Below are positions 1 to 41,579 of a stretch of DNA of 44,738 nucleotides, piece after piece (the first letter of the stretch is position 1; each line of letters opens with the position of its first letter). Below the pieces are notes generated by a model. That model ran no database searches and had not been told where the DNA came from. It worked only from the letters and a program-made list of their open reading frames with translations. The translations under genes and the position numbers were made by a program. Location of the stretch: the sequence record PP925847.1. One strand, given 5' to 3'. Source of the stretch: Escherichia phage Zumzum.

Positions 1-21
1 AGCTGAATCCTCATAAATTGG

Positions 22-50
22 TTGCAATCCTGGTTGAGCGGTGCAATACT
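22..50 (+). promoter_or_regulatory. sigma70-like promoter for the lipoprotein gene (TTGCAA-N17-AATACT), overlapping an ATTGGTTGCAA motif (17-27)
   Basis: Hexamers read directly from sequence; followed by GGAGA ribosome-binding site (69-73) and ATG at 81. Confidence 0.45.
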
Positions 51-80
51 AAAACTCAACCAAATATAGGAGATGATACC

Positions 81-299
81 ATGAAAACTTTAATTATGAT
101 TTGTGGGGTTCTTTTGTCGGGTTGTGCCAACATGCCGACTAAAGTCTGCGACGCGACATACATGAATAGTGGCGTGGAGTATTCCGTCCCTGTGTTTGGG
201 GTTGCAGACGTTAGCGGTCATAAAATGTTACGGGCGGGATACCCATTCAACTTCCAGTATGTGTCGGTCGACCACTTCAAAAGCACAACCTGCAAATAA
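81..299 (+). CDS. small lipoprotein (72 aa), candidate Cor/Llp-type superinfection-exclusion protein
   Basis: ATG at 81 in frame with ORF 18..299; signal peptide MKTLIMICGVLLSGC with lipobox L-S-G-C; sits in the tail-fibre region on the opposite strand to the tail genes. Confidence 0.6.
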   Translation: MKTLIMICGVLLSGCANMPTKVCDATYMNSGVEYSVPVFGVADVSGHKMLRAGYPFNFQYVSVDHFKSTTCK

Positions 300-318
300 G
301 CCCCTTTCGGGGCTTTCT
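299..318. terminator. bidirectional rho-independent terminator between convergent genes
   Basis: Hairpin AGCCCC-TTTC-GGGGCT (299-314) followed by a T-rich run. Confidence 0.6.
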
Positions 319-993
319 TCAATCATAATTGGCGGTGTTAATCGCCATAATCGCGTTGCCGTTGTTAGTATACCCCACCACATCCCCCGTGGCGTTCCCC
401 GACGACGCTGCCGATATACGCGTTCGCGACCCATCAAATCTGGCCCCCGTGTACGCCGTTACCGATATTACTTGCGGCTGGCCCTGCACAAAAAACCGGA
501 TCAGCGTAGACCCCAATATGCCCGGAGCGACGGCGTAGCTGCCGTTTAGCGTCTGGTCAATGTTAATCCCCCCGTTAGCGCCTGGCGATCCGACGGTAAC
601 TAAATCACTTAGTACGCGACTCTCATTAGTAAGCACTAGCTTCCCCGTCTTATCCCAAATAGCGAAGCCCCACCGCGGAAGGGACTGTGGGAATATAGCA
701 AAGATGTAAGCCGTCATCGTGAAGCCCTGCCCGAATGGATTGCTGGCGCTCACCTTCACCACATTACCAACGCGAGAAGACCCTACGACGGTCGGCTGGG
801 CGGTGTGCGTAGTTTTCACAAACGCTATTGCGGGGTAGTCACCGCCCAAATTAATATCGGCAGCCGCCGACTGCGCAGTGCCGTTAGCCGAAGACCCAAC
901 AACCACACGGCGGAATAGACAAAACGGCGTCGATTCTGGCGTGATAAACGGGTTGCCGTTTGGTAAGTCAATCAACGCGCCGTAATTAGCCAT
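319..993 (-). CDS. tail fibre-associated protein (224 aa), unknown function
   Basis: ORF at the distal end of the tail operon, downstream of the J-like gene. Confidence 0.5.
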   Translation of the reverse strand: MANYGALIDLPNGNPFITPESTPFCLFRRVVVGSSANGTAQSAAADINLGGDYPAIAFVKTTHTAQPTVVGSSRVGNVVKVSASNPFGQGFTMTAYIFAIFPQSLPRWGFAIWDKTGKLVLTNESRVLSDLVTVGSPGANGGINIDQTLNGSYAVAPGILGSTLIRFFVQGQPQVISVTAYTGARFDGSRTRISAASSGNATGDVVGYTNNGNAIMAINTANYD

Positions 994-1295
994 TATGCTC
1001 GCTCCACAAAAACAATAACGTCACATTCAGATGCGGAGTAAACCCCGCCACCTACCGCACTTGCCGCGGAAACCGTGATAGTGTTCCCGCTGGCGGTTAT
1101 TCTGCGGCCTGGCCCGACCGCGCCTTTATCCAGTGCGACCACGTATCCGACCTTCATCCCCGCCGGTACAGGGAATGACCATGCGCCTGATTTTTGTCCT
1201 TCCGCAAGATGAATCCTTCCGATCACGCTTACCGGTTTAATGCCGTAGTTGTTTGGGCGTCCTTGCGCGTCCCACGTTGCGATACCGAATGCCAT
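993..1295 (-). CDS. small tail-associated protein (100 aa)
   Basis: ORF between the J-like gene and the 224-aa tail ORF; start overlaps the downstream stop. Confidence 0.5.
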   Translation of the reverse strand: MAFGIATWDAQGRPNNYGIKPVSVIGRIHLAEGQKSGAWSFPVPAGMKVGYVVALDKGAVGPGRRITASGNTITVSAASAVGGGVYSASECDVIVFVERA

Positions 1296-1307
1296 AAATA
1301 ACCTCGT

Positions 1308-1327
1308 TAAAAAGGGGCCGAAGCCCC
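1308..1327 (-). terminator. rho-independent terminator/attenuator after the J-like gene
   Basis: Hairpin GGGGC-CGAA-GCCCC (1314-1327) with A-run 1308-1313 on plus, i.e. T-run after the hairpin on minus. Confidence 0.45.
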
Positions 1328-1331
1328 TATA

Positions 1332-39552: not shown

Positions 39553-39872
39553 ATACTTCATTCGAAGCCATCGACTTTTCGGTTGCAATGACTAACCAGC
39601 TATTCACCTACGACAGCAAAACCGGAGTCATCCGTCTGAAGTCCACCGGCTGCAAGATCGGCAACATCAATACTGCCGACGGCGGAACACGTATCGAATG
39701 CAACGGCAAGACGCTGTCTGGTGCACGCGTGGCGTGGATTATTGAGACTGGCAATACAATCCCTCCAGGCTTCGCCGTTGTGTGCCGCCAGCGCACACCA
39801 GGGCACTACGGCAACCGAATCAGCAATCTGTATTTGGTAGACGTTGCACGCGACCCTAACTTTTATGCGTAA
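39549..39872 (+). CDS. HNH-like endonuclease domain protein (107 aa)
   Basis: Spacing pattern resembling phage HNH homing endonucleases (ARVAWIIETGNTIPPGF...GNRISNLYLV), with the usual Asp/His positions substituted. Confidence 0.4.
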   Translation: MNTSFEAIDFSVAMTNQLFTYDSKTGVIRLKSTGCKIGNINTADGGTRIECNGKTLSGARVAWIIETGNTIPPGFAVVCRQRTPGHYGNRISNLYLVDVARDPNFYA

Positions 39873-39877
39873 ATTGG

Positions 39878-39906
39878 TTGCATAATCATATTGGTTGCAT
39901 TATATT
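39878..39906 (+). promoter_or_regulatory. promoter TTGCAT-N17-TATATT embedded in two direct ATTGGTTGCA repeats (39873-39882, 39890-39899)
   Basis: Read directly; immediately followed by a hairpin plus T5 (39907-39930). Confidence 0.5.
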
Positions 39907-39953
39907 GAGGGTGTCCGGTTTGGACGCCCTTTTTAATACCTGGAGACAACACG

Positions 39954-40418
39954 ATGAAAATTTTACAAGAAGAGAAAAACTACTGGGCCGCGCAATGCCT
40001 CGAAGCCCGCGAACAGGCAGAACGCGTCAGCGCGCTGGCAGATACCTACCTGTCAAGCTATGAAACGGAAGAAAAGCGCCGCATGGAGTTAGAGGAGCGC
40101 TTCGAACTGCTTTTCGAACTGATGGGGATTATGCAGCGCACCGGATACACCACCAGCGTTGCACTAAACCGAATCACTGCCGATGCGTTGCGGGAGCACT
40201 GTAAACGTGCGGAGGAGTACGTGCGTCCGAAGGGCCGCCAGTCTTCGATCGCCCGGAAAGATTTGGTGCTTATGGCGTGGCGCAACCCTACAAATGGCAG
40301 CTTCTACCCGGACGCGCGCCCGCTTAGTGCTGAGGAGTCAAAGCGCGTGCAACGCATTCTCAAAACCGGCAATAAAATCGCCCTGTATGCGATAGACACT
40401 GACCATGCAGAAGAGTGA
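39954..40418 (+). CDS. hypothetical protein (154 aa)
   Basis: ORF with ribosome-binding site (TGGAGA) and ATG at 39954. Confidence 0.55.
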   Translation: MKILQEEKNYWAAQCLEAREQAERVSALADTYLSSYETEEKRRMELEERFELLFELMGIMQRTGYTTSVALNRITADALREHCKRAEEYVRPKGRQSSIARKDLVLMAWRNPTNGSFYPDARPLSAEESKRVQRILKTGNKIALYAIDTDHAEE

Positions 40419-40890
40419 GCAAAAAGATAGCTGGCGCACGCCGCCAGCTTTATTTAAACCGCTGCGCCGGAAGTACCGATTCCGATATGATATGGCGGCA
40501 AGCGACGCCAACCATCTGCTACCGCGTTACTTCACGGCAGAGCACAGCGCGCTTGATGTGGACTGGTCAGAGTTGAAAGGGTGGAAGTGGTGCAATCCGC
40601 CGTATTCCGATCCGCTGCCGTGGGTCGAGTGTGCAGCGCACGGACGCCGGACTGTCATGCTACTGAATCAGGACACGTCGACGAAGTGGGCGAAGCTGGC
40701 CCGGAAGACTGCAAACCTGATAATTCTTCTGGACTGGCGGATTAGATTCATTCACGCCGTCACCGGCGAGGTCGGGCCGAGCAATAACAAGTGCCAGCAA
40801 TTGATAATCTTTGACGAAGCGCTACCGATCGGCAGCGCAAAAATTGAAATAATGAGCGAAGGAGAACTCCTTGAATATCTTAATCGTTGA
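40405..40890 (+). CDS. phage Dam-type DNA N6-adenine methyltransferase (161 aa)
   Basis: N-terminal DSWRTPPALF and catalytic NPPYS motifs. Confidence 0.7.
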   Translation: MQKSEQKDSWRTPPALFKPLRRKYRFRYDMAASDANHLLPRYFTAEHSALDVDWSELKGWKWCNPPYSDPLPWVECAAHGRRTVMLLNQDTSTKWAKLARKTANLIILLDWRIRFIHAVTGEVGPSNNKCQQLIIFDEALPIGSAKIEIMSEGELLEYLNR

Positions 40891-41095
40891 CCGCAGCCTC
40901 GCGGTCGTAGACCAAATGCAAAAAGACTTCTGCATCGATCCACGCCGCGATCGTGTGCATCGCGTGTTGCGGCCTGAACACCTCCTGGGCATGGACCTTA
41001 CCGGCTGGCTTGTCATAACCCGACGTTGCCATTTCGTGTGTAACTCCTTCACCGCGCGCAGCGCCCGACAGACCCTTATTGAGAGCTTAAAATGA
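40871..41095 (+). CDS. hypothetical protein (74 aa, TTG start)
   Basis: AGGAGA ribosome-binding site before TTG 40871; stop overlaps the next start (ATGA). Confidence 0.4.
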   Translation: MNILIVDRSLAVVDQMQKDFCIDPRRDRVHRVLRPEHLLGMDLTGWLVITRRCHFVCNSFTARSARQTLIESLK

Positions 41096-41562
41096 AACTA
41101 CTGATTTGTGATCTTGATGGCGTTATTAATGGTTCGAGTGATGCACGCGCCGACCTGGTTCCGGGTATAAAAACCAAATCCACTTTTTGGGCGAAGTGGC
41201 ACAAAGCGCACGTACGCGAAGACCTGAACATGGATATGCTGCCGCTGTTGCGCATGTACAAAGAGCAAGGCTTCGAGATAGCGTATCTGACAAACCGGCA
41301 GCGCGAATGTCGGGACACGACCGCAGAGCAACTGAAGGTCTTCCCGAATGGCCGGTTGTTCATGCGCCACATGCTGGACGACACCCCTCCGCCAGAGTTT
41401 AAAGCGTGCGCGGTGTTCAAGATGGTCTGCTATGCGGACGTATCGGAACTGGTCATCATTGAAGACTGTCCTAAGAACATCGCGGCAATTCGTCGGGCGT
41501 GCAGCGATCTGGTGCCGAAAATTTACGCAATAAATGTTGCAAAATTTACTTGCAACCAATAG
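41092..41562 (+). CDS. HAD-superfamily phosphatase-like protein (156 aa)
   Basis: HAD motif I (ICDLDGVI) at the N-terminus. Confidence 0.5.
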   Translation: MKLLICDLDGVINGSSDARADLVPGIKTKSTFWAKWHKAHVREDLNMDMLPLLRMYKEQGFEIAYLTNRQRECRDTTAEQLKVFPNGRLFMRHMLDDTPPPEFKACAVFKMVCYADVSELVIIEDCPKNIAAIRRACSDLVPKIYAINVAKFTCNQ

Positions 41563-41579
41563 GTTGGTTGCACTATAGT
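41550..41579 (+). promoter_or_regulatory. promoter TTGCAA-N18-TATAGT containing TGCAACCAAT and TTGGTTGCAC
   Basis: Read directly; the -35 lies within the last codons of the HAD gene. Confidence 0.45.

Follow-up and report, generated by a model that had tools for sequence, protein, structure and literature searches.

A conserved asymmetric box shared by a putative replication origin and predicted sigma70-type promoters in Escherichia phage Zumzum and related phages

DnaA boxes are asymmetric 9-mers that occur in either orientation and at variable spacing, both at oriC and in promoters such as those of dnaA and nrdAB, so that the initiator also regulates transcription. The P4 alpha protein, which acts on the iterons of ori and crr, carries a C-terminal winged-helix origin-binding domain, and in N15 the origin lies inside the 3' end of repA; neither system is known to carry its iteron inside many promoters. 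Here, we describe a short box of 9-10 bp, consensus (T)ATTGGTTGC(A>C), in the genome of Escherichia phage Zumzum (PP925847.1), whose complete 44,738-bp sequence is hereafter called the window. The enrichment of this box, its conservation, its geometry within promoter cores, its clustering beside the primase-helicase gene and its covariation with phage lineage were seen directly in the genomes compared. The explanation that we favour, at a probability of about 0.42, is that one phage protein, most likely the primase-helicase, links an array of boxes at the origin to the boxes in promoters. No description of the box or its promoters was found in our literature searches, and one phage genome paper that was checked makes no mention of promoters.

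By analogy, the logic of this system appears closest to that of DnaA boxes and iteron plasmids, and its gene arrangement to that of P4 alpha and N15 RepA. Like DnaA boxes, the phage box is asymmetric, occurs in either orientation, is clustered at a putative origin and lies over promoter cores. Unlike them, it has an unrelated sequence (TTATCCACA vs TTGGTTGCA), and its candidate reader is a phage primase-helicase, not the AAA+ protein DnaA. As with P4 alpha and N15 RepA, short repeats are found at the 3' end of the gene of a multidomain primase-helicase, either next to it or within it, and a winged helix is predicted for the Zumzum protein. However, no sequence homology to P4 alpha was detectable, the iteron sequence differs, and the recognition helix of the phage winged helix does not track the box. 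In the iteron plasmids (P1 RepA, F RepE and pSC101 RepA), one repeat serves both the origin and promoter occlusion, as is proposed for the phage box, but the plasmids control only the initiator's own promoter, whereas the promoter of the candidate phage initiator is box-free and approximately nine others are boxed.

The core of the box, the 8-mer TTGGTTGC, was found in 19 copies in the window, against 1.76 expected and a maximum of 5 in shuffles. The word ATTGGTTGCA was present in 9 exact copies (0.10 expected from shuffles) and, with at most one mismatch, in 16 copies (3.08 expected). A sequence-only reading of this DNA had proposed a recurrent motif beyond chance, and the search against a shuffled background bears it out: every position that it listed is a copy, to within 1 nt. 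Three copies (26364-26373, 36931-36940 and 5481-5490) were absent from that list, and two further points went beyond it, namely, that four copies lie just 3' of the primase-helicase gene and that such a cluster is a feature common to related phage genera. The 10-mer consensus is asymmetric, and eight of its positions are invariant. Fifteen of the 19 copies are located in non-coding DNA (~8% of the genome, about 3.3-3.5 kb), as expected of the mostly intergenic motif first described, and two more are found at gene ends. The copies are arranged singly, as direct pairs or as one inverted pair. The direct pairs at 14-17 nt that had been noticed are real (14 nt, 16118/16132; 16 nt, 33103/33119; 17 nt, 39873/39890), and they are joined by a direct pair 31 nt apart (26918/26949) and the inverted pair, 12 nt apart (41551/41563).

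The window is an HK578-like virulent coliphage genome of the genus Dhillonvirus, with ~93% identity to Over9000, Sponge and Oekolampad, and its gene map was obtained by carrying over the Oekolampad annotation by tblastn. The genes for structure and lysis, together with several small ones, are oriented leftward and occupy the stretch between ~26.9 kb and 0.3 kb. The control region at 30035-30300 is the divergence point of the leftward early operon, comprising hyp50 (29705-30034, minus strand) and the primase-helicase gene (27430-29694, minus strand), and of the rightward DNA-metabolism block (30.3-42.8 kb). Four boxes lie within the 533-bp non-coding region directly 3' of the primase-helicase stop codon. 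Three of them are direct repeats on the minus strand (27320-27329, 27355-27364 and 27409-27418), reading GCG(Y)RYATTGGTTGCC, and start 12 nt past the stop codon; this is the putative origin array. The fourth (27040-27049, plus strand) is inverted relative to the other three. All four are ATTGGTTGCC with the prefix GCG(Y)RYA. Three of these copies, including that at 27040, have no promoter-like overlap, and the copy at 27320 has only a weak one (TTGCCG-N18-AATAGT).

Equivalent clusters were found in seven other lineages or contigs. Wherever a lineage has a box cluster, it is found within the 3' end of the primase-helicase gene or shortly beyond it, and in most of these lineages a copy is no more than ~35 nt from the stop codon. 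Klebsiella phage 37P2 has one copy 25 nt inside the gene and three downstream. Serratia phage Otaku has four copies in the last 190 nt of the gene; their spacings of 23, 78 and 13 nt show that they do not reflect a peptide repeat. Edwardsiella phage eiAU-183 (eiAU) has seven copies in 290 bp, beginning 26 nt inside the gene, and the metagenomic contigs L014, L015, L017 and L019 likewise carry a cluster at the gene end. By analogy with known origins, this cluster is most likely the replication origin, and it would be the shared and probably ancestral location of the box. The SO-1 GenBank record annotates the putative origin stretch as a repeat region only. The GC-skew minimum near 30 kb falls on the switch in transcription direction and is therefore not independent evidence for an origin.

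Other sequence features accompany the cluster. A perfect 20-bp palindrome, GATATGGGAATTCCCATATC (27389-27408), adjoins the box at 27409-27418. The word GAATAG(T/A)TATGCAG is kept just past the boxes (window 27288-27301, minus strand; L009 38203-38216; L018 about 7885) although the DNA of these putative origin regions, from Salmonella phage Shemara, contig L018 and the window, is otherwise unalignable; GAATAGT is also a promoter-spacer word of E. coli phage Bas76. A second repeat, the over-represented word GCGGGACA, occurs in 16 copies in the window. Two arrays (27168-27269 and 10283-10541), which correspond to 'region B' and 'region A' of SO-1, contain six exact copies apiece, all of minus-strand orientation. 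A long GC-rich hairpin, nearly identical at the two sites, comes after each array (about 27114-27162 and 10226-10276). The repeat co-occurs with hyp50 and was also found in L014; outside Dhillonvirus, its count is close to chance in most of the genomes checked. When the regions from -200 to +900 around the primase-helicase stop codon were inspected in L015, L017/L012 and L018, other lineages showed second repeats of their own: ACTCGCAA six times (37P2 clade, L015), GTGCGGAA/TCCGCACA four times (Otaku clade, L017/L012) and GGCGGACA three to four times (L018).

The box is conserved. Six other Dhillonvirus genomes contain 19-22 copies each, in orthologous places. In alignments of nine control regions, box columns were 93.2% identical to the window, versus 81.5% for other non-coding columns (Mann-Whitney p = 7e-11). 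In LM40P1, the most divergent of these genomes, the flanks drift while the boxes stay exact. Moreover, a direct 17-nt pair stands there in place of the inverted pair 41551/41563, which indicates that box occupancy, and not local sequence, is preserved. Outside the genus, the box is enriched in 37P2 (13 copies vs 1.5 expected), Otaku (12 vs 1.7) and eiAU (23 vs 1.7), as well as in contigs L014, L015, L017 and L019. The first three phages share the replication module with the window at 45-70% protein identity, and several of their boxes are found at orthologous promoters, namely, in the SSB/annealing spacer, where the VRR-NUC gene ends, and in the divergent control region. The box is very probably a protein-binding site. 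The related phage Bas76 (L011) is without the box. It carries instead 11 copies of a promoter cassette, TTGACA-tGT-GAATAGT-N7-TATAgT (e.g., at 30691, 32991, 33035, 13941 and 36633), with an internal AATAG/CTATT dyad of fixed position and orientation, probably the operator set of its XRE-type regulator.

To follow the box through the phage lineages, 119 primase-helicase homologs were clustered into ten clades, and their genomic contexts were fetched. Variant boxes, TTGGCTGC and TTGGCCGC, were found in two lineages. Contig L016 contains 11 copies of TTGGCCGC and none of TTGGTTGC. Six of the 11 form the gene-end cluster, one is inverted in the spacer of TTGACA-N17-CATCAT upstream of the SSB gene, and one follows a TAATAT -10 element upstream of the gene after VRR-NUC; both promoter copies are orthologs of window promoters. 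In Shemara and L018, TGTTGGCTG(C/T) is confined to the gene-end cluster. The middle dinucleotide of the box (TT, CT or CC) follows the primase-helicase clades, and promoter copies, where present, change with the cluster. Because the variants track lineage at the origin and at promoters together, a phage-encoded reader is favored, and we consider such a reader probable.

The sequence-only reading had left a choice between a phage and a host regulator, of which the host part now appears improbable. A DNA-binding protein common to Enterobacterales and exploited by these phages would explain why an identical 8-mer recurs in phages that infect E. coli, Klebsiella, Serratia and Edwardsiella and share just 25-70% protein identity. 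However, the box at the putative origin is of the CC type in L016 and of the CT type in Shemara and L018, and in L016 the promoter copies are changed too. Furthermore, the hosts of TT-type phages range from Escherichia to Edwardsiella. The CT type of a Salmonella phage sets it apart from the E. coli phages, which is not so for the Edwardsiella phage, and Bas76, itself an E. coli phage, has no box. We know of no host factor with such a site, and our literature searches found none. Known host sites, taken as leads only, failed at invariant box positions or in spacing: CytR GTTGCATT, PdhR/UxuR ATTGGT-N3-ACCAAT, NtrC TGCACCA-N3-TGGTGCA, Tus Ter GTTGTAAC, and the sigma54 -24/-12, IHF and DnaA sites. 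A role at the RNA level was also rejected, since no Rfam family or tRNA was found in the window and the spacer copies are untranscribed.

A relaxed sigma70 scan, whose hits are consensus predictions, covers 3.1% of the genome, and 15 of the 19 copies overlap these promoter-like spans, which agrees with the promoter tie and operator-like behavior suggested before. Four of the promoters (16105, 30212, 33090 and 41550) were also called independently by a consensus tool. The boxes, which lie in either orientation, occupy three slots, at about -40 to -31, -23 to -14 and -9 to +4. In slot A, TTGCA of the box is the -35 element (17, 26949, 27320, 36931 and 39873), and the inverted copies 41551 and 26364 form it as tTGCAA. 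In slot B, the box fills the spacer, with its end 0-1 nt short of the -10 element (same orientation, 16118, 39890 and 41563; inverted, 30224 and 33103). In slot C, it covers the end of the -10 element and the start site (16132 and 26918; inverted, 33119). The earlier idea that TTGCA doubles as the -35 hexamer is correct for the five motif-orientation copies and the two inverted copies of slot A, of which 26364 is in coding DNA with a weak -10 element (TACCAT), and incorrect for the eight spacer and start-site copies and for three origin-region copies. Most box promoters have two copies, the flanks of the copies are unrelated, and the same slots recur in LM40P1 and L014.

Because the box shifts slot and strand, it is neither a promoter hexamer nor an UP element. 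The UP-like element that had been offered also fails on composition and place, as the box is not A/T-rich (50% G+C) and sits from -40 to +4, not from -40 to -60. A favored sigma70 promoter sequence, that is, an extended -35/spacer element spread by cassette duplication with no dedicated protein, seems the most improbable of the explanations considered. TTGCA does form the -35 element in several copies, and Bas76 provides a related example of a duplicated whole-promoter cassette, but the box moves among three slots and flips strand amid unrelated flanks, only one of the four origin-region copies overlaps a promoter-like site, and that a weak one, the eight invariant positions far exceed the contact needs of RNA polymerase, and the variants change in concert within a lineage.

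The geometry would suit an operator that occludes RNA polymerase. Since spacer and start-site positions in either orientation fit occlusion and not activation, repression is slightly preferred as the effect on promoters. Short sites over the -35, spacer, -10 and +1 positions, with a regulator gene at divergent promoters, are shared with lambda-type Cro/CI operators and the XRE cassette of Bas76. Those operators, however, are palindromes for dimers in one or two control regions, whereas the phage box is asymmetric, genome-wide and shared with the putative origin. The dyad symmetry expected of the operator of a dimeric helix-turn-helix (HTH) repressor is lacking in the asymmetric 10-mer, and a cognate regulator does not co-occur with it, as neither hyp50 nor XRE-type regulators track the box.

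Alternatively, another, unrecognized phage protein could activate or mark a temporal promoter class, in the manner of MotA boxes or middle promoters, so that the cluster would be a set of sites or promoters and not an origin. The T4 MotA box is likewise an asymmetric 9-bp box in a promoter class that keeps a good -10 element, and T4 origins hold such promoters. But MotA boxes are fixed at -30 in one orientation and replace the -35 element, whereas the phage box uses three slots and both orientations, and no match to the MotA or AsiA family was found among the proteins scanned. The promoters of phage RNA polymerases of the T7 type offer no better parallel, because no phage RNA polymerase was seen in the window, nor is one annotated in its relatives, and the box position is variable. 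This alternative draws on the covariation of the boxes with phage lineage, on the many small early proteins without a detectable family, on the fact that the box itself often provides the -35 element, and on the lack of a clear specificity signature in the primase-helicase. Against it, most origin-cluster boxes have no promoter-like partner, the spacer and start-site positions in both orientations misfit known activator geometries, and box promoters already have good -35 and -10 hexamers. Moreover, among small proteins (up to 260 aa), only a Dam-like methylase is common to the box genomes and absent from Shemara and Bas76. We regard this alternative as unlikely.

That methylase is the only protein besides the capsid type whose presence tracks the box. 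Because the Dam-like family is widespread in unrelated phages and its characterized members methylate GATC, the correlation was taken as shared ancestry, and the methylase was set aside as the reader. A hidden shared small protein was sought by weak triangle similarities, and none was found.

For the reader itself, the primase-helicase is the leading candidate, although we hold this identification only tentatively, at somewhat less than even odds. No other gene of the leftward operon is shared by all box-bearing lineages, the cluster adjoins this gene, and a winged helix is predicted in the product, which together point to it. The protein has 754 aa, and Pfam detects only the AAA_25 helicase domain in it. 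Upstream of AAA_25, the alignment consensus contains an AEP-type DxD motif (LFIDLDG) and a Cys/His zinc-finger motif (CPN..H...CQHxHC), which suggest an N-terminal primase part. Permissive Pfam scans of the termini and an NCBIfam scan of the full length returned nothing, and a homolog search with the C-terminal 235 residues alone gave just 2 matches. In the AlphaFold2 (AF2) model, a winged helix of ~75 residues is predicted at the C-terminus (about residues 666-740, nt 27475-27699; predicted local distance difference test (pLDDT) score 79-90). The best Foldseek matches to this part were MarR/ArsR regulators, the ORC2 winged helix and histone H1, all weak (E 0.02-0.4). The box reader might instead be the conserved primase/zinc-finger part of the primase-helicase, or another protein. 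The idea that the recognition helix of the winged helix tracks the box was not supported, its sequence varying among lineages with identical boxes.

The first gene of the same operon, hyp50, encodes a 109-aa protein with a C-terminal HTH (HTH_23/Sigma70_r4_2-like) and is the sole protein in the window with a recognizable HTH DNA-binding domain. Its family is confined to HK578-like phages. Among homologs P0001-P0024, the N-terminal ~45 residues are repeatedly replaced and the C-terminal ~60 (linker and HTH) are nearly invariant, a pattern suggestive of a partner-binding end that is under diversifying selection or subject to module swapping. Reading of the promoter boxes by hyp50, as a Cro-like repressor or an activator and at least in Dhillonvirus, would accord with its standing as the only recognizable HTH protein, with a C-terminus kept as expected for a fixed DNA target, with its own box-free promoter, with boxes at the -10/-9 spacer slot being most numerous in hyp50-bearing genomes, and with the transcriptional regulator that occupies its position in outgroup phages. 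Yet 37P2, Otaku and eiAU share the box, including orthologous promoters, without a hyp50 homolog: none was found in them by tblastn, and the lowest E in a profile search of 37P2 and Shemara was 0.37. This absence removes hyp50 as a universal reader. In addition, the co-occurrence of hyp50 with the GCGGGACA arrays, which are specific to Dhillonvirus, is just as good. The hyp50 slot in 37P2, Otaku and eiAU holds XRE-type proteins, whose recognition helices do not track the box; those of 37P2 and the box-less Shemara are closer to each other than to that of eiAU, and the XRE-type regulators were rejected as readers on this ground. A local role of hyp50 at the promoter boxes is therefore considered rather improbable.

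The individual predicted promoters were located as follows. At the left end of the window, the box ATTGGTTGCA (17-26, plus strand) overlaps the -35 element TTGCAA (22-27), followed by N17 and AATACT (45-50), upstream of a gene for a Cor-like lipoprotein (81-299, plus strand); the LM40P1 ortholog has a full 17-nt pair. The promoter TTGCAA-N18-TATATT (16105-16141, plus strand) has a spacer box (16118-16127) that ends 1 nt before the -10 element and a second box (16132-16141, plus strand) over the -10 end and start site. It serves two genes inside the structural block that are encoded on the opposite strand, orfX (16155-16484) and the gene for Nmad5 (16525-17289). The orfX product is a 109-aa protein without a family match, and Nmad5 (nucleotide-modification-associated domain 5) is a 254-aa protein (Pfam E = 8e-59).

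The promoter of the hyp53 leftward operon, TTGCGT-N17-TATATT (26918-26958, minus strand), uses the box at 26949-26958 as its -35 element and has the box at 26918-26927 over the -10 element and start site; eiAU repeats this geometry, with boxes 32 nt apart. At two of the start-site boxes (16132-16147 and 26912-26927), ACCAAC follows the box and gives TTGGT-TGCAC-ACCAA, a potential mRNA 5' stem-loop. A similar ATTGGT-CATTA-ACCAAC is found in the leader of the box-free leftward promoter (30040-30060, minus strand).

In the divergent control region, the leftward early promoter of hyp50 and the primase-helicase gene, TTGACA-N17-TAGTTT (30066-30094, minus strand), has no box; HK578 has TTGACA-N17-TAGTAT there as an annotated promoter. 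The rightward early promoter, TTGACT-N17-TAATAT (30212-30240, plus strand), contains an inverted spacer box (30224-30233) that ends 1 nt before the -10 element. Between the two, a possible small RNA (30108-30201, plus strand) would start from a strong promoter-like site, TTGAAA-N17-AATAAT with an upstream TG, at a position where HK578 has an annotated promoter. A hairpin and a U9 run lie ~30 nt downstream of this site (minimum free energy -16.2 kcal/mol, z = -2.8), and the transcript would include a degenerate box, ATTGGTTaGC. The first rightward gene (30301-30819, plus strand) encodes a 172-aa low-complexity protein in which K/A/P-rich (KKAPAKGK) and acidic (DDDD/EDE) blocks alternate; it is kept in all relatives, and its only assignment is a PHROG of unknown function.

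Farther rightward, the promoter of the SSB/annealing and DNA polymerase genes, TTGACC-N17-TAAATT (33090-33128, plus strand), has inverted boxes in the spacer (33103-33112) and at the start site (33119-33128), the former with orthologs in 37P2 and, as the TTGGCCGC variant, in L016. At the 3' end of the VRR-NUC gene (36931-36964, plus strand), the box at 36931-36940 is the -35 element (TTGCTG), followed by N17 and TATAGT (36959-36964). This promoter serves hyp39 and downstream helicase genes, and orthologous boxes occur at 20650/20684 in 37P2 and 1548 in L016. The promoter of hyp33 and the Dam genes (39873-39906, plus strand) contains a direct 17-nt pair, in which the box at 39873-39882 is the -35 element (TTGCAT) and the spacer box at 39890-39899 (plus strand) ends 1 nt before TATATT (39901-39906). 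The hyp29/hyp28 promoter, TTGCAA-N18-TATAGT (41550-41579, plus strand), carries the inverted pair, with 41551-41560 (minus strand) as the -35 element and 41563-41572 (plus strand) in the spacer.

Two copies lie in coding DNA. The box within hyp54 (26364-26373, plus strand) is kept in all relatives and would form tTGCAA-N17-TACCAT on the minus strand, a possible internal promoter. The core copy in a minor-tail gene (5481-5490, plus strand) is without a promoter and is probably a chance or coding occurrence outside the system. Candidate promoters of the structural block are box-free, e.g., TTGGTG-N17-TATAAT (22364-22392) upstream of terS.

From these data, we infer protein binding, the identity of the protein, the origin function of the cluster and repression as the steps of the following mechanism. 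One phage-encoded DNA-binding protein would read the asymmetric box (T)ATTGGTTGC(A/C). In Dhillonvirus, the box would also have been placed in approximately nine sigma70-type promoter cores, in one or two copies and in either orientation; these promoters would drive two 'moron' cassettes and the hyp53 leftward operon besides the DNA-metabolism genes of the rightward block. The box-free leftward promoter would produce hyp50 and the primase-helicase, and a product of this operon, most likely the primase-helicase acting as initiator, would bind the origin array and, on accumulating, the promoter boxes, where occupancy would block RNA polymerase. Early and middle transcription would thus be tied to replication, the shut-off of DNA-metabolism and accessory genes would be coupled to initiator build-up, and box-free promoters would escape.

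Several observations weigh against this mechanism. The promoters are consensus predictions only, and promoter embedding is densest in exactly the lineages that bear hyp50. No fold-search match reached E <= 0.001. The DNA-reading start of the predicted recognition helix varies among lineages with the same box (GTSTKA, SGNYKK and GGRYSD), and only six scattered primase-helicase columns track the box type. The lineage-specific second repeats, moreover, suit the hypervariable winged helix better than the box does. Finally, the hyp53 promoter may feed the long leftward lysis/structural block and yet bears boxes, which complicates a simple early shut-off.

In a different version, which we consider unlikely, the box would be a loading or priming signal for the primase-helicase, planted in the main origin and in promoter cores melted by RNA polymerase. 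If so, promoters would double as secondary replication starts or collision-control points that are switched off by initiator occupancy. This would amount to replication-coupled transcription in a virulent siphophage without its own RNA polymerase, common to Dhillonvirus, Eiauvirus and part of Guernseyvirinae, with co-evolving boxes.

Dhillonvirus phages are members of standard coliphage collections such as BASEL. They are in use in defense-system and phage-therapy work. The present analysis yields a cis-regulatory map of approximately ten promoters and a candidate origin, together with a short list of candidate trans factors. The TT, CT and CC boxes constitute a natural specificity series that is open to direct swaps. 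If the initiator also controls promoters, as in the mechanism that we favor, these phages would provide a compact phage case of DnaA-style coupling between replication and transcription, and a handle for engineering expression timing.

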